64,000 nucleotides of DNA from Trypanosoma brucei (GCA_000002445.1 CM000208.1:1376001-1440000), one strand, 5' to 3'; positions 3,188-49,759 are shown, numbered from the stretch's first letter. Numbers and translations: made by a program. The notes: a model not told the origin generated them from the sequence alone.

Positions 3188-4228
3188 ATGCGGTCGGTAG
3201 GTGGTGCCGTTGGTGCTACATGCTGCTTAGTTCCGTCTGTGGGTACCCAAAGGCGTCAGTATCATGCTTTTCAGTTCGCAGGGTTCCATGGGTGGAAGAT
3301 ACCATACGAGGGTAAAACGAAAGTGACGAAAGAGGAGCTAGACAACATTCGTTTCTTCACGCAGCGGTCCAAGGATAAATGGGACTACCACCGAGTCGAT
3401 GAAAACATTAACTCGAGTTCGGAGTTCCGCAAAACACATGACAGACCAGAGTTTGAACAGGGTATGCGTGAAGACAACTCAACGACCGATCACGGAGACT
3501 TACACACGCCCAAAAAGTACCGTCTGTATGAACACTTTGATGAGTATACAAAACCTGGGGTGAACAAAAAGGTTGCTGCTTGCTATGCCGTGAAAGAGCA
3601 GTGGGATGCTGAGGAGTTTTATTACCCTGGCGAGGCATGGAAGAAGAACCGACCCGGTTTCCGGAGTGTACCTAAGGAACTCTTGAACCGTCAAACGTGG
3701 TATCATTGGTCCGACACTATCATGAAGTGGGATGAGATTCAACCCACTATACGAACCCGTTCCTGGAACCCTGACTGGCCACCTCCTGGATATAAAGTGC
3801 CATCAATGCATTGCAAGAAGGAGTTTGTATTTGGTGTGGAGGATCCTGCTGTTGTGTCCGAAGTAGAGCGCTACAATTGGTATCGATCTTGGAGTGATAG
3901 TAATCTACGTTGTGGTTGGAAGGACATATGGTTGTTCGGTGTGCTGTTCGGAGCTATGTATTATATGGCCCGTAACGCGCTCGACATCGTTAGCATGCGT
4001 GCCATGATGAGCAACATGTTTTACCCGGGCCGCCAGTTTATCCGCTCTTTTGGCACACCGAGGGATTGGGAAACTGATGTTTTTTGGTGGCAACGCCCAC
4101 TTGAGGAATTTCCCAATCAGGGCGAAGTGTGGTACATTAATGAAAGCCGTTACAAGTACATTAACTATATAAAAAAACGTGACGCGATGGAACGGGCCTT
4201 AGCGGAAGCAGAAATGAATGCAGTTTAG
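3188..4228 (+). CDS. Conserved hypothetical protein. Trp-rich. The N-terminus looks like a mitochondrial presequence.
   Basis: ATG at 3188. 346 aa uninterrupted ORF. N-terminal MRSVGGAVGATCCLVPSVGTQRRQYHAF is R/S/hydrophobic-rich. No recognisable catalytic motif. Confidence 0.5.
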   Translation: MRSVGGAVGATCCLVPSVGTQRRQYHAFQFAGFHGWKIPYEGKTKVTKEELDNIRFFTQRSKDKWDYHRVDENINSSSEFRKTHDRPEFEQGMREDNSTTDHGDLHTPKKYRLYEHFDEYTKPGVNKKVAACYAVKEQWDAEEFYYPGEAWKKNRPGFRSVPKELLNRQTWYHWSDTIMKWDEIQPTIRTRSWNPDWPPPGYKVPSMHCKKEFVFGVEDPAVVSEVERYNWYRSWSDSNLRCGWKDIWLFGVLFGAMYYMARNALDIVSMRAMMSNMFYPGRQFIRSFGTPRDWETDVFWWQRPLEEFPNQGEVWYINESRYKYINYIKKRDAMERALAEAEMNAV

Positions 4229-11184: not shown

Positions 11185-12747
11185 ATGAAAGCCCGGCGAC
11201 GTGGAGGGTCCCTACATGCAGAACTCCCCTTTACATATACGCTGTTCAGCACCATTGACGTCTACGGTGATGACTTACTCGATTTTACAGGAGATGACAA
11301 ACCTGAAAGACATGCTGAGGTTACGGAATTCCTGCGCAGGAGGGGATCGGGTGCATGTCGTGATGCTCCTCTTGGGCCGTCATCGTACCTTCACATGAGA
11401 GAACCCTTCAGTTACATTGCCGAAGGCTCCATCAGTGAAAACACATCCGATGCAGGCGGCAGCTTTGCCCGTGTGGAAGATGCCATGCAACACGTGTGGT
11501 TCATTTCGCAGCGTGATGGAATCAGCACTCCGTTTGCTCTCAACTTCTCGACATCTGCGCAGTTTTTAAGGTACGCGGAGAGGGAATCGTTGCAGTTTCC
11601 GACGTTAAGATGTGGATCATCCACAATGGCTTCGGAGCCCATTGCAGCACATGAAGGACCTGCTAAGTGGTTGGATATTCAAACAAAGAACAAAACTCTC
11701 GTTACGGATATTCTTTCCCACTTCCCCGTCTCGGCGGATACAGTCGAACACTGCTGCTATCCAGATGATATGGATCGTGTTATTGCACATTCCACGCTTG
11801 GATATTTCTTCTTTAACCTCATGTGTACACCCATCGCCTTAGGGGAAGTGGCACGTGGCCGCCATCAAGTGAAAAGCGTCATACAGCAGCGACTTGAAGC
11901 TGCAATGAGCGCCGGTCCGCGTTCTTCGACCCCATCGGCTGTCGCCGTTTCTGTTATAGTTTTCTTTGATTGGGTCGTAACGGTGCATGAGGAGCCCTTT
12001 CATGAGTTTGATGACTTACTGCGTTTTATACTGATTAACTGTGGTAATCGGGCGCCCGCATCAAACAACCGAAGGCTCATGCAGGTGATGACGGCCCCTT
12101 TCATATTCGCTAGTTTCTTTCAAATTGTTGTGGGACACTTATTAGACAGCGAATCGCTAACCATGATAGTGGACGAGGTCAGTGATCTTGTGTTTCTTTC
12201 CAAGAGCACAGAAGGTCACAACGAAGAGGTTGTGCAGCGTATTACCAACGCGCGCCGGTGCTTTGCCGAGTACGCCGCCGAGTTGACTAGACGTGAGTAC
12301 ATTGCTTCTGTTCTTCTACATTCGCATATGATGGATTCGTTTCTCACAAAAGACAAAGTTTGCCGTACACAAATAGAGAGCGCTCAAGCTTACCTTTATC
12401 GTATGAGTGATGAAGTTGGGGACTGTCGTGACACAGTCGCACTGACAAATTGGTACCAGAATGTGAAGGACACGTGGCACCATCTTCAGTACGGTAATAA
12501 GGCACTCCGTCAAACAGTTTTGTTTACTGAGTTGATTAACATTATGTACCCCCTCATCACACTTCAAACGCTTTTCTCCCTTAACGTGCGGATCCCTTTC
12601 GCTTACTACGAGGATCAAATGGAAAAGGATTTGAAACCGTTTTTCATTATGATGGGGATTGTGTTATTCTTTTTGTTGTTGTGTGGGCGTGCGATGTATG
12701 CTCTGTGGCACAAGAAACACTGGTCGACGCGCCTGCTGGCAACGTAG
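11185..12747 (+). CDS. CorA/Mrs2-like (MIT superfamily) membrane protein with a degenerate GMN motif (SLN). Large N-terminal soluble domain.
   Basis: The C-terminal YPLITLQTLFSLNVRIPFAYYEDQ...FFIMMGIVLFFLLLCGRAMYALWHKKHW parallels CorA/Mrs2 TM1-GMN-loop-TM2 followed by a KKxW tail. First in-frame ATG at 11185 (the track start at 11152 is TTG). Confidence 0.5.
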   Translation: MKARRRGGSLHAELPFTYTLFSTIDVYGDDLLDFTGDDKPERHAEVTEFLRRRGSGACRDAPLGPSSYLHMREPFSYIAEGSISENTSDAGGSFARVEDAMQHVWFISQRDGISTPFALNFSTSAQFLRYAERESLQFPTLRCGSSTMASEPIAAHEGPAKWLDIQTKNKTLVTDILSHFPVSADTVEHCCYPDDMDRVIAHSTLGYFFFNLMCTPIALGEVARGRHQVKSVIQQRLEAAMSAGPRSSTPSAVAVSVIVFFDWVVTVHEEPFHEFDDLLRFILINCGNRAPASNNRRLMQVMTAPFIFASFFQIVVGHLLDSESLTMIVDEVSDLVFLSKSTEGHNEEVVQRITNARRCFAEYAAELTRREYIASVLLHSHMMDSFLTKDKVCRTQIESAQAYLYRMSDEVGDCRDTVALTNWYQNVKDTWHHLQYGNKALRQTVLFTELINIMYPLITLQTLFSLNVRIPFAYYEDQMEKDLKPFFIMMGIVLFFLLLCGRAMYALWHKKHWSTRLLAT

Positions 12748-13486: not shown

Positions 13487-14302
13487 ATGCTTAGCCGCTG
13501 TTTTGTCGTGTACCGCAAGGCGGTAGCGCAATTCAGTGCGAGAGACTTTCGCCCGCGTCAGAGTATTGCCCTGACGCCAGAGAACGTAACTCTGATGTTG
13601 AAATCGAAACTACACCCGAATGATCGGCTGCTCCGCCAATCAACCGTTGGTCCCGGTGCTTCCCGCTTTTTAATAGTGGATCGAAACCAATGTGTGCGTG
13701 GAATTTATCGTCCTCTGCTCTGTTTACCATATCCAATGGCCGGGTCCAGTGTGTTGGGAGTACCCGTAGAATCATATCTGCAGGTGGTGGAGCAAAAACT
13801 GCTGTCAGAAGAGAATACTACGCTTATTTTTGTTTCGCATGCAAATGGGTTTAGCTTCACAGTGTATGGAATAGACGGGAGTCTTCGCCTTCCATTGGTC
13901 CATCTCAAGTTGCCCGGTGAACGGTCTGTGACGGCGGGTAAAATGAGTGACCGTGACATGCGACCTTTTGTGAATACGACAAATCTCATGGATGACCTTG
14001 CAGAGCTAGTTACTGACCACTATGCAACTTCTATACATCCATGCAGCTCATTTTTTTACCTATCGGGATCAGATTCCGTCTTGTCTTTTTCAGAAACCAA
14101 AGCGGCATGGAGAGAGCGGGGATATGCCGATAAACTGCCGCTTAGTTTTGAAGACAAGCGGTGGGTGAGTCTTCCAGATTTAGCTGCTCAGCACCGAGGT
14201 GTTACTCCACTTTATTGTACAGATTTTGACGGCTACAAAGTCGTAGATGAGAGGGGACTCACCACAAGGGTAAAATTGGGGCGACTTGAACTGGATTCGT
14301 GA
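13487..14302 (+). CDS. Hypothetical protein. The N-terminus looks like a mitochondrial presequence.
   Basis: ATG at 13487. MLSRCFVVYRKAVAQFSARDFRPR presequence-like start. 271 aa ORF. No family recognised. Confidence 0.45.
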   Translation: MLSRCFVVYRKAVAQFSARDFRPRQSIALTPENVTLMLKSKLHPNDRLLRQSTVGPGASRFLIVDRNQCVRGIYRPLLCLPYPMAGSSVLGVPVESYLQVVEQKLLSEENTTLIFVSHANGFSFTVYGIDGSLRLPLVHLKLPGERSVTAGKMSDRDMRPFVNTTNLMDDLAELVTDHYATSIHPCSSFFYLSGSDSVLSFSETKAAWRERGYADKLPLSFEDKRWVSLPDLAAQHRGVTPLYCTDFDGYKVVDERGLTTRVKLGRLELDS

Positions 14303-18267: not shown

Positions 18268-18966
18268 ATGGAGTCTCCGCCCTCAAATGATGAAAAGCAT
18301 GAATTGGCTGTTGCACTTCGTTTGAAAGAAGAGGACGACGCACTTTTGTGTGCCTTCGGACCAGATTACTTCAATGGGGCACGTGTGGGTGCCGGTTGCG
18401 GCGGAGTGTTTACGGCATTTCTCGCATGGTGGTCCTTTGTTGATTTAAAGGAGGATCACAAACTGTGTGACTCGGCACTGCCGACTCACATGCGTGATAG
18501 ATCATGGACTATAAGACGAGGTTTTCACTCGAGGCCCTTCTTCACAGTTGGCTGTGTTGCACTAGGTATTACAACACTAATGAAAGCAACCAAGTTTTGT
18601 TTGGCGAATTATCGGTATCAGGAATTTGCTGCGGATGATATTGGTTTCGAGTTGTTGAAGAGCATGTACGTTAGCTCGCCTGAAGGGCACCGGCAGTTTG
18701 AGGCCTTTGTGAAGAAAACGATTGGTAATGAAAAAGTATTGGAATTACCATCGCCTTCCACTAACTTTGCAACGGGTGGAAAAATCCGCAACAATCAGAA
18801 TCTTACGGAAACACTAGTGAGCAGTACATCGTCATTTTGTGATCGTAAACCACCGTCGTTTTGGGATGGAGTGGCTGTTGGAATTATGGGTTCCGTCATG
18901 GACTGCTACTTACCGTGCAAACCCCTCTATAGTTACTATGGCATGAGGTGCGGTATGCGCCTTTGA
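18268..18966 (+). CDS. Hypothetical membrane protein with a glycine-zipper-like segment (GARVGAGCGGVFTAFLAWW).
   Basis: ATG at 18268. 232 aa. Hydrophobic Gly-rich segment. No family assigned. Confidence 0.45.
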   Translation: MESPPSNDEKHELAVALRLKEEDDALLCAFGPDYFNGARVGAGCGGVFTAFLAWWSFVDLKEDHKLCDSALPTHMRDRSWTIRRGFHSRPFFTVGCVALGITTLMKATKFCLANYRYQEFAADDIGFELLKSMYVSSPEGHRQFEAFVKKTIGNEKVLELPSPSTNFATGGKIRNNQNLTETLVSSTSSFCDRKPPSFWDGVAVGIMGSVMDCYLPCKPLYSYYGMRCGMRL

Positions 18967-19295
18967 GGACCACGAGGTGTCGTAGGACGCGGGCGTAGAC
19001 TTGCGTGCGATTGGCGCATTTTGGAGAAGCGGCAACTTACAAACTGAGTACAAACTTTCTGAGCATCTTTACCTTCCCCTGTTGCAGCAATGCTTAGCCT
19101 CTGCCACTGGGAGCATAGTTTATATATATATATTTTTTCGTGTTTTCCTTTTTCTCCGCTTGTGTGTGGTGTGTTGCCCGGGTGAACCCCCTCTCGTTTC
19201 CCTTGCAGATTGCCTTTCCATTTTCGTTTCTTCTCTACATCATTCTGTCTAGCAATTTAGTGAAGTGCATCATCGGCGAACTTCAGTGTTGGAAG

Positions 19296-20336
19296 ATGGT
19301 CCTTTATGTAATGGGCCCCCCGCGAGGGAGGGGTGGTGCCAACACCTCACGCCCAATTATAGCAGTCCTTGCTGATGTGTCGTTCGACACCTTTCGGGTC
19401 CGAGTGTTATGTATTGAATCAATAGTCAACCGTCCGATGGCATTCACAGCACTTAAAAACACATATTGTGATGCATATAATCCTACTAGTTCCGGGCCTT
19501 TTCTCTCCGCGGGGAATTCGGACTCGTTAATGGATTTAACTGTTGATGATAAAAAGCAAGAATTAGGCGCATTGAAAGGGTTTCAAGCGTCTCCACCGAG
19601 TGCATTGGGGTCTGTGCTGATTGATATACCCTTAGACACCTCGCACATGTCGCCCGATGACTTCATGTCAATTGCGTTCTCCCCTCGGTGCAATCCACTG
19701 GGAAGCTTCCACCGTCTTAGTGTTTCCGCACCTCTCGTAAAGGCGGCGTACATTCACGACTACGTGATACACGGCCCCGATTCCCCTGGGCGGAATGACT
19801 TTATACGTGCGATGGAAAGGCGCGGTAGTGCGACGAGGCGGGATACCTCCACGCGCTCTGTTAGCCCCCTAACTCTTCCTCCTACATTTCCTTTACCCAG
19901 TGGTGTTTATGAACCCCTGATGTGGGAGGAGGTAGAGGCACGTGCACGCTTAGTACACTTGGAAGATGTCACCCGCCGACAGTGTCATTCAGCAGAGGTG
20001 TCAGGTTATCTTCGGGCTCAGCGGCTCACACGTTGCAAAACGTCATTTCACTTCTCCGACTTCTCAGCGAAGAAAAGAATACATGAGGCCGAGGTGAAAC
20101 TTTTGCGCGAAGATATGGAGGTGCGAGCAAAGCGGGAAAGAGCTGAACATGAGGAGTTCATGCGAGCGATGACGCGTGGGCGGACGCAGTTGTTGAAACT
20201 GCCAACTATTACAACATCCGGTAAAAAATACAAACCTACGGAGGTAGACAAGCACGTAGCGCGGGTCTTAACCTTCAGGAAACGTGCGGCTAACAAATCA
20301 GACAGCAAGGAGAGACATTTTCTTGAAATACTCTAG
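19296..20336 (+). CDS. Hypothetical protein with a C-terminal coiled-coil.
   Basis: The track ORF from 19140 translates a pyrimidine tract first. The first plausible ATG is at 19296 (MVLYVMGPPRGRGG). K/E/R-rich heptad-like C-terminus (KKRIHEAEVKLLREDMEVRAKRERAEHEEF). Confidence 0.45.
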   Translation: MVLYVMGPPRGRGGANTSRPIIAVLADVSFDTFRVRVLCIESIVNRPMAFTALKNTYCDAYNPTSSGPFLSAGNSDSLMDLTVDDKKQELGALKGFQASPPSALGSVLIDIPLDTSHMSPDDFMSIAFSPRCNPLGSFHRLSVSAPLVKAAYIHDYVIHGPDSPGRNDFIRAMERRGSATRRDTSTRSVSPLTLPPTFPLPSGVYEPLMWEEVEARARLVHLEDVTRRQCHSAEVSGYLRAQRLTRCKTSFHFSDFSAKKRIHEAEVKLLREDMEVRAKRERAEHEEFMRAMTRGRTQLLKLPTITTSGKKYKPTEVDKHVARVLTFRKRAANKSDSKERHFLEIL

Positions 20337-29906: not shown

Positions 29907-30299
29907 TCACTGTGTATCATTTATCCGGGTGTAGTGACGGTGAGTTTCTCGTGGCTGAAGGGGGTTCCTTGCACCATTTGTACTGTGCACTGCGTAACTA
30001 GCATTTTGCCTCTGTTGCTCCTTAAGGGCATAGGTTCATGTAGATTAGCGTCCCGGAGGAATTAGTGTGGAATTGTGTTGGAGAAGCTTCTTGCCTCCGT
30101 TTTAGACCACGATTGTGATAGCCATGACTGTGTGGACGTTTTCCGTGTGTCCCGTGATTGGTGCCCTGTGTTTCCACCTGAAGGTGATTTCCTCCTTATC
30201 ATTTGATTCTTCACTATGATATTCATTTTCACCTTTTAATTTTTTCGTGTGTATGCATTTCACGTAAGGAGTTTAACTAGGGGTAGTCAAGGCGAGCTG

Positions 30300-31787
30300 A
30301 TGGAAGACGATGCTGATGCCTACCTTCGGCGGGTGTCTCAACTGAAGCGGAAACACTTCAGAAAGGATTCTGTCACTGCATATCATCCCACGCCGGTGGA
30401 GGTGGAAACAGCCGACACCAGACCTATACATACCGTGGCTCGAAGGCTACCAATGAAGAAACGAAAGCGGATGTGTGATGATGATGAATTTGACGTTATT
30501 TCTCTTGTGAGGGACGCTGTCAATGTTTCTTCTGGTGGAGTTTTTGTCGCGGATATTCCTTCTACCGGTCCATTGGTTGGTTGTAGTGGTGATAGAAAAG
30601 TATTGCAACAACCGGTGAAAATTACGCTGATGGAAAAGTGGTTTCCTGGGAGGACGTTGCAGAATGCGACTCTGGACCCTGCCCAAGCACCACTGTACCA
30701 GTACACGGAAGTGTCGACGAAGCGAATGAAGGATGCCCGAGAGCGTTTTGTTTCCTTAAAAGCCGGGGTGGAGGATGCGTTGAAGTACTCTTTTGTGGGC
30801 GAGTGCACTAATTTTGACGAAGTTGTCTCCAGAATGACCAAAGAGAGTTGGATTGAGCTTCGCAACACCCTATTTCAAATATCGTCGCGTGCTTCCTTGC
30901 GAAGGAAAAAGGGTGCAGTGAGGGCCATGAAGTACATTTTGTCAACAAATGTTGGGGAACATGTGCCGAAATCCTCAATTTTGCGGCACTGGAACGAATA
31001 TCTTTTGATTCATGGCCCAGAACAGGGATTCCAGCCTACCCTTTCGCTTTTCGTTTGGGTCGAAAGTGCGGGCATTACCGCTCTCTTCACTGCCGTCGTT
31101 AGCCGCGCACTAAAATTGTTTAAGCAAGGCAAAAAACCAATGGCGTACTCGTTTTATGATGCTCAGGAGGAGTCTGAGCCCAGTTGTTGTGATGAGGCTG
31201 CTACAAGTGAAGAAGACGAGTGCGTTGACAGCGGCGAGGTGCTTTCTTGTGAAGGGAGCGTTGAAAAATCGGCAAAGGAGAGTGAACCGATCGCAGTGGG
31301 GACTGGGGAAGGAAACGATAATAATTTAGTGAGGCCGCCTTCCCTAGTGGAGCGCCTTCCTCGACTCGGCGGCTGTTCAGAAGATGTAATATCGCTTCTT
31401 TCGTTCTTGCGCGTATTAATGCCAGTGGACTATCTGGACGAGGATGGGAGGATGATTGGTCGTTCCGCTGGTTACGGCGTTTGGTTGTATGCCTGCTTGA
31501 CCGCTGTTGACACACCCTTTGACCCGGACTTGGACCGACTTGTTCATGAGTTTTTCCGTACTTGTTGCTTACAATTACGGGTACTCGGGGAGGCACACAA
31601 CGTCCGCGGAGATGATCGTGGGGCGATACTGAAAGTTTTCCCATCCCGCAAAGATGACCCCCCTCAGTCGTCACAATACAACTCCCTTGGTGATGTGAGG
31701 AAGGAGGATGTGTTGGCACTCCACACCATTATCGTTGTGCTAGCCAAGTTATTCCGCCTAAATGGTAATCGTTTGGTTCCGCTGTAA
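30300..31787 (+). CDS. Hypothetical protein (about 495 aa).
   Basis: The track start at 30249 is GTG. First in-frame ATG at 30300 (MEDDADAYLRR). No motif recognised. Confidence 0.5.
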   Translation: MEDDADAYLRRVSQLKRKHFRKDSVTAYHPTPVEVETADTRPIHTVARRLPMKKRKRMCDDDEFDVISLVRDAVNVSSGGVFVADIPSTGPLVGCSGDRKVLQQPVKITLMEKWFPGRTLQNATLDPAQAPLYQYTEVSTKRMKDARERFVSLKAGVEDALKYSFVGECTNFDEVVSRMTKESWIELRNTLFQISSRASLRRKKGAVRAMKYILSTNVGEHVPKSSILRHWNEYLLIHGPEQGFQPTLSLFVWVESAGITALFTAVVSRALKLFKQGKKPMAYSFYDAQEESEPSCCDEAATSEEDECVDSGEVLSCEGSVEKSAKESEPIAVGTGEGNDNNLVRPPSLVERLPRLGGCSEDVISLLSFLRVLMPVDYLDEDGRMIGRSAGYGVWLYACLTAVDTPFDPDLDRLVHEFFRTCCLQLRVLGEAHNVRGDDRGAILKVFPSRKDDPPQSSQYNSLGDVRKEDVLALHTIIVVLAKLFRLNGNRLVPL

Positions 31788-39845: not shown

Positions 39846-41030
39846 ATGAAGGTGAATTGTTTTCTACCTTTGTTGCTGTCAGTCAGTTATTGCACTTTAG
39901 CCGACGATAGCGCGCTCACACTGAAGGCGGGGGAAAGTATCTGCAAACTGTCGAAAAGGTTGAAGTCAGTGTTCAAGTATGTAGACCGAAGAACGGATAT
40001 TGCCTTGGAAAAGATCTCCGATCTTGAGGATATGTTGGAAGTGGTGAAGTTTAAGATTGTGAAGGGAAGGTCGAATAATACGAATAGAGAGTGCAAGGAT
40101 GTCTCCGATTTTATTATGAGTAAAGCAACTTGGTTGATAAGAAAAGGGAGGAAGGAGGTTGATAGATTGAAATACGTGGGGCTTGCGGCAATTGGAAATG
40201 CGGGACTGGCGGCAGGGAGGTTAGATGAGATGGTCAATGTGTGGAGGAGGGTGTACAGTGCCGGTACTGGAAACTTTTGCATTGGGGATGAAGGGAATGA
40301 AACAAAGAGGACTGCACTTCCAGATTGCTATCTGACAGATTCGGAGAGGGATGACTTTACTGGGATTGATGAAGGGGACAGGTTAGAAGATATAAACAAT
40401 GTTACCGCTGATGCCTTTAATGAATTATTGGAGTTGCATACAGAGGATGATTTGTGGAGTAGCCCATTGACGAGTGGCATGGACGGTAAGGACTGCCGTC
40501 TAACAAATGCCAGGTCTGGCGGAGGTTACCTCGTCGGAGAGAGCCCATCTGGTAATTTGTTTTGGGGAGACGGGGTGCTTGGGGTGAAGAGGGGTAGCCG
40601 AGGGTATGACGGAAGGACGTCGAATGTAAGGAGCAAATTACTCATAAATGATGTAGTGTGGGAAGCAGACACTGTAGAGCATACCCCTATTATAAGGAAT
40701 GTACACGAAGACTTGCAAAATTTTTTTATCGACGCAGAAAAAATTGATGAATTGGTGGGGGAGACTGGGGATAAGTGGAATTGGGAGTTCTCTCATGAAA
40801 TTGGAAGTCACAGTGGTCATCCCTCAGAGTTTGATGATGAGGAGACTGACGATGTAGCGGACAACACATCGGCAGTGGAAGAGGCAGTAGGGAAGGCATT
40901 TGTGGGGTTGGGAAATAGGGAAGCGTTTCAGGAAGAGATGGTGTTGGAAGAGATGGCGTTGTGTGGAGAATGTAATATTTACACTTATTACCAGTTGTTT
41001 TTCTTAGTTTTCGTTCCTGTTTTTGTTTGA
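39846..41030 (+). CDS. Predicted surface protein. Signal peptide, helical N-terminal domain, Cys pattern, and a C-terminal hydrophobic tail (GPI-signal or TM-like). Paralog A of a tandem pair.
   Basis: MKVNCFLPLLLSVSYCTLA signal peptide. C-terminal YYQLFFLVFVPVFV. Motifs shared with the downstream paralog: CKLSKRLKSVF, AAGRLDEMVNV, GGGY, WGDGVLGV, NDVVWEA. Confidence 0.6.
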   Translation: MKVNCFLPLLLSVSYCTLADDSALTLKAGESICKLSKRLKSVFKYVDRRTDIALEKISDLEDMLEVVKFKIVKGRSNNTNRECKDVSDFIMSKATWLIRKGRKEVDRLKYVGLAAIGNAGLAAGRLDEMVNVWRRVYSAGTGNFCIGDEGNETKRTALPDCYLTDSERDDFTGIDEGDRLEDINNVTADAFNELLELHTEDDLWSSPLTSGMDGKDCRLTNARSGGGYLVGESPSGNLFWGDGVLGVKRGSRGYDGRTSNVRSKLLINDVVWEADTVEHTPIIRNVHEDLQNFFIDAEKIDELVGETGDKWNWEFSHEIGSHSGHPSEFDDEETDDVADNTSAVEEAVGKAFVGLGNREAFQEEMVLEEMALCGECNIYTYYQLFFLVFVPVFV

Positions 41031-41140
41031 ATCAGTTTCACTTGTTTTGCATCACCGTAGACCAGGTGTCTTTAACATGTGTATATCTTCGGTGGTGGTG
41101 TGTTAGCCTTCCGTGCTGATTTTTTTTTTTGATAGTAGAG

Positions 41141-42304
41141 ATGCTCAAGTTTGTTCTTGTGTTAATACTGATTATTGTTGGTGGTGACTATTGTTATCGT
41201 GGTAACGCTGGGGTGGCTTTGAAGTTGCAAGCCGTGAAGTCCGTGTGCAGAGCATCGAAAAAGCTTAAATCGGTTTTTACATTTGTGAAGGACAAACTGG
41301 AAAAAGCGGATAGAAACTTTTACGAGGTGAAACTGCTGCAAAAGCTACTCCGCTTGAAGCTTCTAACGGAATGGACTAAAGGAGAAAAGTGCGGGACAAT
41401 GAGGGTTTTTCTTACCAACATAAGGGCGAAGGAGAGAAATATGCGACGGGAACTGTCAGCCTTATGGAAAATGGGGAGGAGAGTTGTGGGTGAGGCAGGG
41501 ATTGCAGCTGGGAGACTGGACGAAATGGTGAATGTGTTCGCACAGTCGTACGGCAACGAAAGTGAAACGAAAACGTGTATTGGGGGTACAAATGGCAGTC
41601 CTATGGAGGTTTTGAAAAGGTGCTACGCTAACAATTCCAAAACAGGGGAATGGGAGTTCCTCACAATTACAGAGGGGGGAGAACTGTTTGACAACGAGTT
41701 TGAGACAAACTTGGAGACCACGCTTCACGTTATGTTGTCGCTTGGGAATAGAGCCGATCCGTGGTATGACTATGGAAAGGATATGGGGTGTCAACTCACT
41801 AAAGGAGCCCCTGGGGGTGGGTACATGAAGAGCCATAACCTCACAGAGAACATCATTTGGGGTGATGGCATACTCGGGGTGAGCAAAAATGGAAATGGAA
41901 CTACCGGCTCCAAAGGAAACACGAGAGATGGGAAATATGCTCACGATGTCGTGTGGGAAGCAGAACCCACGAAAAATAATCCCACTCTCCGCAGGGTGAT
42001 CAAAGATTTTAGTGCATTCGAAGAATTATTTGCGAAGGTGGAGTCTTCCCACAAGCTGTTAATAGATGCATTTCTCCAGGAGAAATTGTTTGCTGAGGAA
42101 TTCGAGGCTCTTGCGGTTAGAACTAAGAAGAAAAGAGTGATCATTGGCGGTTCCACCTCCACCAAAAATAAGCAGAACAATGCCTTGGGGGGTAGTGGTG
42201 CCGGCGATGATAACGAAGTGAGTATGGAAGAGTGGTTGTCGCAAGTGGATGGGGGAATTGTAGAAGAGAGGTTGTTGGCGGAGGAAATGAAGGAGTGTAC
42301 GTAA
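41141..42304 (+). CDS. Paralog B of the tandem pair. Signal peptide, helical domain and the same motif set, but no C-terminal hydrophobic anchor. It may be secreted or a decaying copy.
   Basis: MLKFVLVLILIIVGG signal peptide. CRASKKLKSVF, AAGRLDEMVNV, GGGY, WGDGILGV, HDVVWEA. Ends in EEMKECT. The track start at 41129 is TTG. ATG at 41141. Confidence 0.6.
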   Translation: MLKFVLVLILIIVGGDYCYRGNAGVALKLQAVKSVCRASKKLKSVFTFVKDKLEKADRNFYEVKLLQKLLRLKLLTEWTKGEKCGTMRVFLTNIRAKERNMRRELSALWKMGRRVVGEAGIAAGRLDEMVNVFAQSYGNESETKTCIGGTNGSPMEVLKRCYANNSKTGEWEFLTITEGGELFDNEFETNLETTLHVMLSLGNRADPWYDYGKDMGCQLTKGAPGGGYMKSHNLTENIIWGDGILGVSKNGNGTTGSKGNTRDGKYAHDVVWEAEPTKNNPTLRRVIKDFSAFEELFAKVESSHKLLIDAFLQEKLFAEEFEALAVRTKKKRVIIGGSTSTKNKQNNALGGSGAGDDNEVSMEEWLSQVDGGIVEERLLAEEMKECT

Positions 42305-45144: not shown

Positions 45145-45940
45145 ATATTTTTATTTTCCAAAACAAAATTTTATTGGTATTAGTGTGATAGAAGATCAAC
45201 TAATGGACAAGCAGGAAATGTTGATTCTGTTATTTTCTTTACTGTTTCTTCGCAACCCAGCGGAAGCTTTCGAATCGCGTTCGTATGTAAAGCCAGATGG
45301 AGACCCGGACTGCACAAATTTGACAGGTGTTTCTCATGTTCCCTATCACAATGATATGGATGATTACGCGGAAGAAAATTGCACAAAAATAAAGACACCG
45401 TCTCATAATAAAGAGCAGACGGGCAACTGCACTCTTTGCGTTGGTCATTACATCTGTCATTCTCTGTATAAATGTGTGAGTAAAGACTTTGTCAGGTTTT
45501 TTGGAAATGGTAGCCAGGAAGAACCCGCAAGCGAAGAAAAAAAGGACAACGAGTCGGCTCTAGATGCTGCTGACACTTCCTCCTCAGGAACTGGAACTGA
45601 GTCTCCTGAAGAAACCACTGGCGGCAGAACCAATGTTAGATCTAATGTGGAAGATGTGAAGGACGGTAAGGAGAATGTGACCTCTCCTGAAGAAGAAAGC
45701 AGGGGCGCTCCACACGGTACCGCGGTTTCCCCTCTCGAGGAAAGAAGCCCGAACCCTACTGACAGAAAGAACCTACCACATGATCGCTTCCTCGCTTTAT
45801 TTACTGAACACTTTTTAAGCAATTCTCAACTTGTGTTGAATTTAAACAATAAGATTATGCTTTCAGCGTTATTTTTCTTGCTATAAAAAAACGAGAGATA
45901 AACTAGTTTGCTAACTGAAAACAATCAGAAATAGAGAGTG
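45145..45940 (+). repeat. Tandem duplication unit 2.
   Basis: See unit 1. The ATG-to-ATG offset is 1274 nt. Confidence 0.8.
45203..45886 (+). CDS. Small GPI-anchor-type surface protein, copy 2. The signal peptide, Cys core, acidic spacer and tail are identical to copy 1. The N-terminal mature segment of about 60 aa and the region before the omega site are diverged.
   Basis: Alignment of the two translations by eye. ATG at 45203 within track ORF 45113..45886. Confidence 0.65.
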   Translation: MDKQEMLILLFSLLFLRNPAEAFESRSYVKPDGDPDCTNLTGVSHVPYHNDMDDYAEENCTKIKTPSHNKEQTGNCTLCVGHYICHSLYKCVSKDFVRFFGNGSQEEPASEEKKDNESALDAADTSSSGTGTESPEETTGGRTNVRSNVEDVKDGKENVTSPEEESRGAPHGTAVSPLEERSPNPTDRKNLPHDRFLALFTEHFLSNSQLVLNLNNKIMLSALFFLL

Positions 45941-47445
45941 ATATCGTTCATACGTGTTTAATTGTATTTTTTTACCAATATTGCTGTATGTTTCTTTGAA
46001 CATTTAGTGGCTTGTAGTATTGTACGGTAGTGGAAAAGGTAGACACCTAATGGGGTTTGTACTTCTGTTGATGGTGGTGTAGTGTTGTTAAAGGATAGCG
46101 CTATTGACAGGGGATTGCGTGTAACGAGGGAATGGAAAATGTGTTTGGGACTAATGGAAGGGAAACGTAGATAACATAATGTAGTGAGGTCGCGTAATTA
46201 ATGCTCATTACGGTAGCATGGCTTCGTGGCGGGGTCTGATGGATACGCAACGGCATGCGTGGGGTGAACAGGGGCTATGTTACCCAGGCAAATACGGAGA
46301 GAAATTGTATGCCACTGCATCGTTGCGCGGTGTAGGAAGGATATTGACCACATGGGATGTTATGTTGTACGAATCTGGTTTCTCTTTTGTCCTAATCTCC
46401 TAGTTGGGGGTGGAAAGGGAATCTGCTAGAGGAAACGGGGAGAGGCATTATGTCTGCGGCGGTTTCGTTGGTCGAGGGAAATGGGTATGGATATTAGATC
46501 CGACTTGAGAGCCGCTCTTCACTACACCAGATTGCGGAGCTCTATCCGAAGGAAAAGTGCACCGGCACGGTGGGCAATTGGGTAGAGTGCTCAGAGTTGT
46601 GAGTATATGCTAGGGTGTATTTGCATATTTCCTGCTGAACCAAAGCGGGAGACAGGAATAAGCGGGGATAATGGGATGGTTTCTCGTGGTTTGTACTGCT
46701 ATGCGCGGATGTTTTGTCAGGTGTGGACGACGGGTTAACTGAGGGGCGGCGTTTCCCGAAAAGAAAAGTGCGGAGCGGATGCGACGCAGATATATTTTTA
46801 AGGCGCGTAATTGGCAGTGCGGTAAGCATACTGAGGGATATCGGAAAATAGGACAGTGAATATGCGGAGGGGAGTGAGCAATGGCAACTCCTGAAAAATG
46901 AAAGACCAAGAGGCGACGCCGGTACGACACACGAGGAAAGCACAGAAGCATTTTCGCGTTGTTGGCCATCCAGCAAGCTTTTCCTCCCATCCATACAATG
47001 CTTCCGCTGCCCCTTTCACGTACATTGGTCCCCGCAGGTGTAGTTCCTGTGGATAATTCTCTTAGGGTTAAGTTCGATTTCTCCGCGTGAAGTGGTGTAC
47101 CCCCAAAATTCCCCATTATTGTTCGTCCCACCTTTACAGTTTGCGGTTTCCTTGCAGGCCTCTTTTTCTACACATCCGTAATCAAATTTGTTTGCCGCTT
47201 CCGTGTCAATGGATGTTCATTGGGTGCCACCGCAGAAGTGGTAGGGGACTCTGGGGCGAACGCTGTTTTTGACAAGTTCCAGAGTTTTCTGATTTTGTTA
47301 CTCTTTGTTTTAGTGATTTGTCGATCCATGACCTTCTGAGGCAGCTCTACGTTAGCCCCCGTTTCATATAGTTGTTGTTGTTTTTCCAAACGCTTTGCGG
47401 GCGTTTACGCACTCCTCGACGTCCACTCCCCGTATTGTACGGCCT
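45941..47445. other. Convergent strand-switch region, a candidate Pol II transcription termination zone, between the plus-strand and minus-strand polycistronic units.
   Basis: All credible CDSs upstream are on the plus strand and all downstream are on the minus strand. Intergenic strand composition flips from T/C-rich on the plus strand to A/G-rich on the plus strand across this point. No tRNA-like structure found. Confidence 0.7.
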
Positions 47446-48039
47446 CTACGGGCAGGTCGTGGAGTCTCCAAACCCCTTTTCGTGCATTTGACACCTAAAC
47501 TTTTTCGCTTTCACAATGAAAACTTCCGGGGGAATCTCGGAAAGAGGTGGTATAACTGAGGCGGTTGTGCAGGTTCGAAGGCTTTGCCCATCTATAGCAA
47601 GGTGATTTCCAGCCGTACCGTTCATTTCATGCACCGACACTTCGCCCCAGAGAAAATAGCTCGGTTGAGCGGCATCAGCAACAACAACAAAAGAGAGGAA
47701 AAACGATCGTAGTTGCTCCACCTTCATGTTTCCCCAACCCGCGCCGCAGGCATGAGGAACGCAAGCCTGCGCTACACAACCAGTAAGGGTGACCGCCACA
47801 GTTCCCTGCACTTGATTCATTTCGAAATGCAAAATTGCGCGTCCTCCTCGCCGCCTGCAAAAAATAGGATCAACGCTCAGTTGTTTTAGTGGTGTTCTGT
47901 AATCCTGGCGCAGAAAAGTGGTGTTAAGATTTAATTCCTTCAGCCCCCAAGCATCTCGTGACTGCAAGAAAATGAAGAGAAGCATTACAACACCGACATG
48001 CCACCAGCGAACGCATGAGAATAAGACAGCGCTGGGCAT
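47446..48039 (-). CDS. Hypothetical protein with a signal-peptide-like or TM N-terminus (197 aa).
   Basis: ATG confirmed on the minus strand at 48039. MPSAVLFSCVRWWHVGVVMLLFIFLQS hydrophobic start. No family recognised. Confidence 0.4.
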   Translation of the reverse strand: MPSAVLFSCVRWWHVGVVMLLFIFLQSRDAWGLKELNLNTTFLRQDYRTPLKQLSVDPIFCRRRGGRAILHFEMNQVQGTVAVTLTGCVAQACVPHACGAGWGNMKVEQLRSFFLSFVVVADAAQPSYFLWGEVSVHEMNGTAGNHLAIDGQSLRTCTTASVIPPLSEIPPEVFIVKAKKFRCQMHEKGFGDSTTCP

Positions 48040-48405
48040 GGTTCCTCCATCAAGACGAAAGCTGAGCGCGACAGCAAGATTGGTGCAAAGGAAAGTTCGA
48101 AGAAGATATGGGCCAAGTCAAGTGTACAGAACAGAGCGACTCCAAAGGTCGGTGCGTGCGTGCAGTCGGCCCCCCCCATAAGTTTCATAAGGGATAAAAT
48201 ATCCCTCTATATCCCACGCCAAGCGTCATTTCCTCTTCTTGCGTACCTTCGCGTCGCGTCTTCGAAGCCATCCTCCTCCAGAACAGCGATACGCGTTTGC
48301 GATAGGACAGCTGAGGTTCCATGCACAGGTTAAAGCGTTATTTTTTTTTTTTGGTTCTCCGAATCCCACCTCCCCCCCTCCAGCCGCTCGTTGTGGCGTA
48401 GCTTC

Positions 48406-48993
48406 TCATTTGCTTCGCGTCAACCCAAGAGTGCAGCGGCGGTCACACAAAGGGCGACGATAACGAGGAAGGGAAGATGGGCTTTTAAGAAGCGACCGGC
48501 CGTGAATGGCAAGGCCCCATGCAATCCAAAACATATTCCACGGCCGCCGTGGTCCGTTTGTCATTTCCTCCAAAACAGACGCGACGTAAGAGTGGCAGTT
48601 GTTTGTGAAGAAATTGTACGTTTGTGTTTTGCGGAAACGCGTCGTAACGCCGCTTAGAGCTCTGTCGTACTCCTCCGTCTCCCGTCGCCTTCTCTCTTCT
48701 ACATCCCCCGACAACAAACCACCCGGAGGAAATCGGGAGGATGGAACGTACATGGCTGAAATGTCCCAATATTTTACGGGGTTTCCAAACAACATGTGAT
48801 CCACTCCAATGCAATACGACCCCTCAAAGTCAAATATTCTGCCAGTGGAATCACATATTCCCACGTGACCCACAAAGGGAAACAACCACGAGACCAGGGG
48901 GATATCGGTCCACACAATGCAGAACGGGTAACGCTCCGGGGTCACAGAGGAAGTTGAGGTTGTATTGTCACTCATTGCGTTCCGCCTTGTCAT
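48406..48993 (-). CDS. TMEM222-like protein (DUF778 family).
   Basis: HVGICDSTGRIFDFEGSYCIGVDHMLFGNPVKYWDI...FTNNCHSYVASVLEEM...WNMFWIAWGL parallels human TMEM222 (HVGICTS.G.I.DFAGPY.V..D.MAFG.P.KYW...CDNCHSHVALALN). First ATG at 48993 (the track start at 48999 is GTG). Confidence 0.6.
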   Translation of the reverse strand: MTRRNAMSDNTTSTSSVTPERYPFCIVWTDIPLVSWLFPFVGHVGICDSTGRIFDFEGSYCIGVDHMLFGNPVKYWDISAMYVPSSRFPPGGLLSGDVEERRRRETEEYDRALSGVTTRFRKTQTYNFFTNNCHSYVASVLEEMTNGPRRPWNMFWIAWGLAIHGRSLLKSPSSLPRYRRPLCDRRCTLGLTRSK

Positions 48994-49062
48994 TACCACT
49001 GTTGCGTATGGCGTATTTGGTGTTCCTAAACTTGAAGTAAAAATATTCTAAAACCCTTGAAA

Positions 49063-49079
49063 GTGTGTGTGTGTGTGTG
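49063..49079. repeat. (GT)8 microsatellite.
   Basis: gtgtgtgtgtgtgtgtg read directly. Confidence 0.8.
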
Positions 49080-49466
49080 GAAGTGAAAATGAAGCTCGTA
49101 GACTCCAACAGTCCTCACCTAGTCCTCTATTTCTCCATTTAAGGTGAATGTGACAGCGCGGATGAGAAGCTACCATATAAATTCATCGCTTTGCGTCGTT
49201 CGGACAATGAAATGCGATGCCTACGCACCCTCATCGGATGGAATTAACCGCTTCTGTCTTGTTTCTCACGTCTTTTTTTTTTGTTTTGCAGGTGGAGGAA
49301 CGACATGATTCATCAACATTGGTCAGCCTATAGCATCCCCACATCTCCTCATCTCGAAAGGAACACAGAGTGCATGATGTAACATTCCAAATAAACAAAA
49401 TAAAATAAACGGCAAGAAATAAAAAAAAACAATTGCGAAAACAAACACGGAGCGAAAGTGCCGTGA

Positions 49467-49489
49467 CCCCCCCCCCCAAAAAAAAAAAA
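49467..49489. repeat. C11 homopolymer directly followed by A12, in the intergenic region between the minus-strand genes.
   Basis: cccccccccccaaaaaaaaaaaa read directly. Confidence 0.85.
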
Positions 49490-49759
49490 TTATGAAAAAA
49501 TTAGTCACCACACCTTTGTAACATATATATATCCCGCATGTCACCTTCGACAATACTGCAACAAAAGTGACAATAATATTATTTGAACATCGCAATGATG
49601 CGCCTTCAGTGCAACAGAAACAAGGGTGACAGAAAATCACCCTTGACTTTCCATGGGCCTGTTTTCCACTCTCAGAATCTGGCTTTATTGAATGCATTTC
49701 TTCGCCGATGGGCCCTCTCCTAAAAATTCCGTAACGATAGCAAAACTATTTTTTCGCCC

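Follow-up and report, generated by a model that had tools for sequence, protein, structure and literature searches.

Positions 11185 to 12747 of a 64,000-nucleotide stretch of Trypanosoma brucei DNA (GCA_000002445.1 CM000208.1:1376001-1440000; the window hereafter) hold, on the plus strand, a complete coding sequence for a full-length homolog of the CorA/MIT superfamily in which the Gly-Met-Asn (GMN) signature that closes the first transmembrane helix (TM1) reads Ser-Leu-Asn (SLN). The open reading frame (ORF) runs intact from an ATG at 11185 to a TAG at 12745-12747 and specifies 520 amino acids; the ATG at 11185 is supported as the start codon because MK[ASGT]R opens all 15 orthologs too. The product is 100% identical to XP_822797.1 (Q38B51) of T. 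brucei brucei TREU927, which is annotated "hypothetical protein, conserved", and to TEOVI_000319000 of T. equiperdum. A T. b. gambiense protein clusters with it at an identity of at least 90%, and the T. congolense ortholog, 65% identical over the full length, likewise carries SLN.

The homology to CorA, which extends over the whole CorA-like architecture, is visible through profile-profile comparison and structure, not through single-sequence search. A word-indexed search yielded the 15 orthologs, which come from Trypanosoma, Leishmania, Leptomonas, Lotmaria and Angomonas. PF01544 (Pfam CorA) was matched at E<=1 by 13 of the 16 proteins formed by these orthologs and the window protein, the best at 2.6e-7; among nine orthogroup members scanned singly, three passed the gathering score of 27 bits (P0003 with 30.2, P0026 with 29.7 and P0029 with 32.0), and the T. 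congolense ortholog, at 15 bits, lies under it. Nothing relevant was returned when the window protein alone was compared with NCBIfam and with PDB sequences (phmmer), and a profile of the 16 orthologs had no match among PDB sequences. A search of 1.84 billion representative proteins with the orthogroup profile gave 118 matches at E<=1e-3, which fall into two tiers: the orthogroup itself at 370 bits or more (two N-terminal fragments score lower) and distant relatives at 171 bits or less. Of the 102 lower-tier sequences outside the orthogroup, 81 place G-M-N in the very alignment column occupied by SLN, as the original prediction had supposed. When the orthogroup was aligned by hhalign with 15 lower-tier GMN proteins, some of them positive for PF01544 (for example P0036 at 79.5 bits), the match reached a probability of 100% and an E-value of 1.2e-49; it comprised 421 columns and took in residues 94-516. 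Identity between the orthogroup and the GMN relatives is only about 15-23%. Since the profile-profile match, the alignment of SLN on GMN and the structural model agree, membership of the CorA/MIT superfamily is established; the predicted CorA/Mrs2-like identity is thereby borne out at the level of profile and fold, the profile match being obtained with the orthogroup profile and not with the protein alone against Pfam CorA.

The domain organisation, given here in plus-strand coordinates, follows that of CorA. Residues 1-93 (11185..11463) form an orthogroup-specific N-terminal extension outside the region alignable to CorA-like relatives; it opens with a conserved MKxRRR, which across orthologs reads MK[ASGT][RH][RQ][RH], and its residues 30-80 are partly ordered in the deeper AlphaFold2 (AF2) model, with a predicted local distance difference test score (pLDDT) of 72-88. 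It is speculation only that the arginine cluster, given a cytosolic N-terminus, might retain the protein in the endoplasmic reticulum (ER) as a di-arginine-type signal or target it in some other way. The alignment to relatives and the AF2 model delimit a CorA-type cytosolic alpha/beta domain at residues 94-290 (11464..12054), which shares with GMN-bearing relatives the motif W162-x-D164-x-Q166 and the strand-turn F260-x-x-W263-x-x-T266-x-H268-x-x-P271-F272. The expectation that a soluble domain of about 430 residues would fit the family thus holds from about residue 94 onwards, and the first 90 or so residues fall outside it. A helical stalk follows in the AF2 model at residues 304-438 (12094..12498), made up of helices 304-318, 322-337 and 343-377 and then of the first part of a 75-residue helix, 391-465, in which the stalk is continuous with TM1 as in CorA and which stops exactly at Ser465.

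TM1, the putative pore helix, spans residues 439-465 (12499..12579) according to hydropathy, conservation and the AF2 model, and has N452, P456 and Q461, together with R442 and L446, as invariant residues. S465-L466-N467 (tcc ctt aac, 12577..12585) occupies the place where CorA has GMN; the GxN signature at the end of TM1 is absent, and Asn alone is conserved. An acidic inter-helix loop, residues 468-483 (12586..12633; VRIPFAYYEDQMEKDL), has E474, D475, E478 and D480 as its acidic residues and V468 and P471 as invariant ones. TM2 occupies residues 484-508 (12634..12708), again from hydropathy and the AF2 model, and a basic C-terminal tail, residues 509-520 (HKKHWSTRLLAT), completes the protein with the stop codon (12709..12747); HKKHW follows TM2 in T. 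brucei, and R-K/R-R/K-W/F stands at the same place in the orthologs. Hydropathy delineates two C-terminal segments, one moderately hydrophobic (about 445-468) and one strongly so (484-506), and the AF2 monomer, which improved to a pLDDT of 83.8 and a predicted template modelling score of 0.81 when modelled on an alignment of 58 sequences, places the loop 466-483 between helices 391-465 and 484-509. The CorA fold features of a cytosolic alpha/beta domain with a long stalk helix that runs on into TM1, two C-terminal transmembrane helices with a short joining loop, a proline in TM1 (P456), a proline in the loop after the motif (P471) and a basic cluster after TM2 are therefore all present. The order TM1, motif, acidic loop, TM2 and basic KKxW tail had been read correctly from the DNA, and the C-terminal sequence quoted with it was exact; the topology comprises two C-terminal helices rather than one, and SLN lies at the end of TM1 and not in a soluble region.

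The history of the motif is less direct than a replacement of GMN by SLN. Gly is indeed absent from the window protein as predicted, but it is absent from the motif position of every other member of the trypanosomatid orthogroup as well, so that no single step from GMN to SLN is seen. AMN is the motif in 18 sequences, from T. vivax, T. theileri, T. grayi, T. melophagium, Leishmania, Leptomonas, Lotmaria, Angomonas and Strigomonas; TMN occurs in three, from T. cruzi marinkellei and T. rangeli, SMN in three and SIN in three. SLN is found in five sequences, only from T. brucei subspecies and T. congolense: T. b. brucei, T. b. gambiense and T. equiperdum have it without difference, and T. congolense has it too, so that orthologs conserve it in these lineages and not in other trypanosomatids, T. 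vivax with its AMN included. A sequencing error behind SLN is ruled out by its occurrence in both the T. brucei subspecies and T. congolense. In a neighbour-joining tree the orthogroup forms one clade on a long stem, with T. brucei and T. congolense as sisters, T. vivax adjacent to them and SIN on two separate branches. Because no member has Gly and the clade has a single long stem, Gly was lost before the trypanosomatids diverged. M466L is the step in the motif that belongs to the T. brucei/T. congolense lineage, where it is accompanied by Y464F, L447F, Y496F and the loss of two loop prolines, the GDPP of other orthologs' loops being gone in both species. Positions 464 and 466 do not vary among the 14 other sequences, and 20 positions altogether changed on this branch though kept in at least 12 of those 14.

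Conservation is highest where a pore would lie. The mean column value is 0.76 for TM1, the protein's maximum, the N-terminus having 0.50 and TM2 0.55, and the sole columns invariant across the 58 sequences of the orthogroup and its GMN relatives are P456, N467 and P471. This pattern is that expected of a constrained pore helix and not of a decaying gene, as judged from the alignments. Among the distant relatives, which are environmental sequences, AMN, TMN, SMN, ATN, AVN, ASN, AAN, TCN and RMN also stand at the motif position (P0059, P0081, P0086-P0089, P0092, P0095, P0098, P0100, P0116, P0128, P0129 and P0133), and Gly seems to have been lost repeatedly in eukaryote-like CorA relatives. Two of these sequences, P0128 and P0133, contain two CorA-like repeats each, with GMN in one and RMN in the other.

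Leishmania MGT1 and MGT2 are likewise kinetoplastid CorA-superfamily proteins with two transmembrane helices; they are said to be of the 2-TM-GxN type, from which the present orthogroup differs in its lack of Gly. In Leishmania, the window protein's orthologs are found on contigs of 2.7-2.9 Mb, which we take to be the size of chromosome 36. The Leishmania ortholog is syntenic with GPI10, and the T. brucei GPI10 (Tb927.10.5560) has LmxM.36.1200 as its counterpart. According to two later papers, MGT1 and MGT2 are the ER-localised CorA-like proteins of Zhu et al. 2009, MGT1 being reported as a direct Mg2+ transporter and MGT2 as apparently essential (PMC12998195, PMC11696137). The TransLeish supplement for L. 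mexicana gives MGT1 as LmxM.15.1310 and MGT2 as LmxM.25.1090, has LmxM.28.1940 as the third and last member of the MIT family (1.A.35), and includes no LmxM.36.11xx or 36.12xx gene in its MIT lists (PMC11696137). As the Leishmania ortholog sits on a contig of chromosome-36 size in synteny with GPI10, it is separate from MGT1 on chromosome 15 and from MGT2 on chromosome 25, and the window protein is orthologous to neither, a conclusion resting on contig size and synteny rather than on a tree containing both. The same placement, together with the absence of any 36.11xx or 36.12xx gene from the TransLeish lists, makes the orthogroup a further CorA-type lineage beyond the three MIT genes counted there; it was probably missed through scoring under the Pfam CorA cut-off. 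UniRef calls the L. major ortholog Q4Q1V9 (P0024) and others (P0014, P0015) "MGT2 magnesium transporter", a family-level name that is misleading, for the MGT2 that has been studied is LmxM/LmjF.25.1090 on another chromosome. Alignments of the GMN-bearing relatives, both full-length and with serine runs trimmed, were used as queries for MGT1 and MGT2 and retrieved nothing but environmental sequences. T. brucei has further CorA-type genes: Tb927.9.5490 is listed as the counterpart of a magnesium transporter that was found close to the VTC complex of acidocalcisomes in L. tarentolae (PMC13375126), and two "Mgt2 family" transcripts are enriched in stumpy forms (PMC3694164).

Comparison with other members of the superfamily brings out what is particular to the window protein. 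Prokaryotic CorA of Thermotoga maritima and Methanocaldococcus jannaschii (TC 1.A.35, PF01544) has G-M-N where the window protein has S-L-N, shares only about 11-14% identity with it and does not have the extension of about 90 residues at the N-terminus found in this eukaryotic protein. Mrs2 and Alr1, the eukaryotic Mg2+ channels, are superfamily members of the same architecture. The closest parallel to the motif is offered by the plant MRS2/MGT variants with AMN (OsMRS2-4, OsMRS2-5, ZmMGT6 and TaMGT1A/B/D), in which a conserved natural change from Gly to a small residue likewise leaves M-N, or at least N, in place; most of the trypanosomatid orthogroup shows this same first step. The plant proteins, however, are of Mrs2 type and of independent origin, none is reported with S-L-N, and in T. 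brucei Met is replaced too. ZntB and CmaX, which carry GIN or GVN and act on Zn2+ and other ions, differ in that ZntB keeps Gly and alters the middle residue, whereas the window protein has no Gly; neither a G-I-N or G-V-N motif nor a specific similarity to ZntB was found in it. GIN and GVN variants are linked to cations other than Mg2+ (PMC4613352, PMC9948656).

We are somewhat inclined to regard the window protein as a conducting CorA-type channel whose ion preference and/or conductance is altered relative to canonical GMN Mg2+ channels. Most likely it would still form a pentamer of CorA type within an internal membrane, its N-terminus facing the cytosol. The outer mouth of the pore would be a ring formed by the invariant Asn467, into which the acidic loop would feed cations, and the cation preference and/or conductance would be unlike that of the GMN channels. 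In the lineage of T. brucei and T. congolense the pore mouth changed further, through Y464F, M466L and the loss of the loop prolines, to F-S-L-N. The corresponding history, in which a trypanosomatid CorA-fold channel stayed without Gly throughout the divergence of the group and then, in the common ancestor of T. brucei and T. congolense, had its pore mouth remodelled from Y-A-M-N to F-S-L-N and gave up the loop prolines, is put forward tentatively. Several points weigh against an altered but conducting channel. Gly counts as essential: single substitutions in GMN abolish Mg2+ transport, G-to-A being the mutation used in Mrs2 (PMC4613352), and among natural AMN proteins OsMRS2-4 and OsMRS2-5 fail to complement and ZmMGT6 does so weakly (PMC9948656); because of these precedents a conducting Mg2+ pore is not assured. 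The motif-bearing loop, moreover, has the lowest confidence within the C-terminal part of the AF2 monomer model, and the window protein alone has no match to PF01544 at E<=10.

Much of this could also be accommodated by a non-conducting or modulatory subunit, which would tune Mg2+ flux in heteropentamers with GMN paralogs or by other regulation, a possible but doubtful alternative. Yeast provides parallels for a regulatory subunit in Lpe10 with Mrs2 and Alr2 with Alr1, possible partners exist in the three MIT members of L. mexicana and in Tb927.9.5490 of T. brucei, and a genetic interplay between MGT1 and MGT2 is reportedly seen in Leishmania. The absence of Gly from the entire orthogroup, the loss of Mg2+ transport in the Mrs2 mutant and the failure of the rice AMN paralogs would all suit such a role. 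Conservation peaks, however, in the pore helix TM1, with invariant polar residues and with Asn467, rather than at the cytosolic interfaces, as would be expected of a working pore; the low identity to GMN relatives also makes tight co-assembly less obvious. An altered conducting channel is in turn challenged from the other side by the notion that [A/S/T][M/I/L]N is equivalent to GMN in this structural context and that the protein is an ordinary Mg2+ channel of unchanged function. The replacements of Gly by Ala, Ser or Thr and of Met by Leu or Ile are conservative in size and hydrophobicity, the protein keeps the Asn, the proline in TM1, the one in the loop after the motif, the loop's acidic character and the basic tail, and maize ZmMGT6 shows that AMN can complement, if weakly. 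We nonetheless consider full equivalence improbable: in the systems tested, mutants and natural AMN variants lose Mg2+ transport or have it strongly reduced, and the orthogroup has a long branch with many differences in TM1, such as Q461-T462 in place of A/T-G.

Relaxed selection after a loss of function in T. brucei and T. congolense, with SLN as the mark of a decaying gene or pseudo-channel, is very unlikely. It could draw on the fact that the T. brucei protein is the sole member of the ortholog set scanned singly that lacks any Pfam CorA match, and on the branch-specific changes at 20 otherwise conserved positions, several of them at the pore mouth. Against this, the 520-residue frame is intact and has been kept, with SLN, through T. 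equiperdum, T. b. gambiense and T. congolense, S-I-N, a similar motif, evolved independently in further kinetoplastid sequences, and TM1 is still the best conserved region; because Asn467, Pro456 and Pro471 are also invariant, the gene does not appear to be decaying. The status of pseudogene was rejected as unlikely on account of the intact ORF and the conservation of TM1.

The gene is probably Tb927.10.5540 (+/-10), an unconfirmed identifier placed from its neighbours. The contig that carries it measures 4.05 Mb, as chromosome 10 does, and the neighbours agree with that chromosome. The window contains genes for a HORMA protein, a Memo-like protein, a GT22 mannosyltransferase, a PP2C, an aldolase and CDC48/VCP, of which the HORMA protein is HOP1 (Tb927.10.5490), the mannosyltransferase GPI10 (Tb927.10.5560) and the PP2C Tb927.10.5590. 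Five further plus-strand ORFs of 230-510 amino acids in the same polycistron had no Pfam match at E<=1e-3 (3188-4228, 13487-14302, 18268-18966, 19140-20336 and 30249-31787), one of them directly downstream of the CorA-like gene. Two tandem plus-strand ORFs of about 390 amino acids each, at 39846-41030 and 41129-42304, match a variant surface glycoprotein (VSG) A-type N-terminal domain (PF00913, E-values of 8e-11 and 2.5e-13); they lie mid-chromosome among housekeeping genes and coincide with the strongest GC skew of the window (0.362 at 40001-42000). A convergent strand-switch region extends over about 45900-49750: the plus strand carries the long ORFs as far as about 45.9 kb, the minus strand those beyond about 49.8 kb, and the cumulative GC skew changes direction in this region. 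Neither tRNA genes nor tandem repeats were found anywhere in the 64-kb window.

Natural non-GMN variants are already known, and the orthogroup is not a new kind of system. Literature searches with the accessions, with the candidate identifiers Tb927.10.5520-5550 and with GMN or CorA-like plus trypanosomes found nothing on the T. brucei gene and no experiments on any other member of the orthogroup, and three features appear to be undescribed: a conserved kinetoplastid orthogroup without Gly, S-L-N with two of its three positions substituted in two lineages of African trypanosomes, and the orthogroup's absence from transporter inventories. The analysis provides a T. brucei gene that bore only a "hypothetical protein" annotation with a fold and with a function that can be tested, and it shows that trypanosomatids have at least one CorA-type lineage more than the three recovered when Leishmania transporters were screened systematically. 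Within the orthogroup, AMN, TMN, SMN, SIN and SLN form a graded series of natural variants on an otherwise conserved pore helix, which is convenient for asking what the Gly and the Met of GMN contribute. Should the remodelled motif reflect a true change of the transported ion, or a dedicated regulatory pseudo-channel controlling GMN paralogs, it would amount to a natural experiment on the selectivity of CorA and to a component of ion homeostasis peculiar to the parasite.
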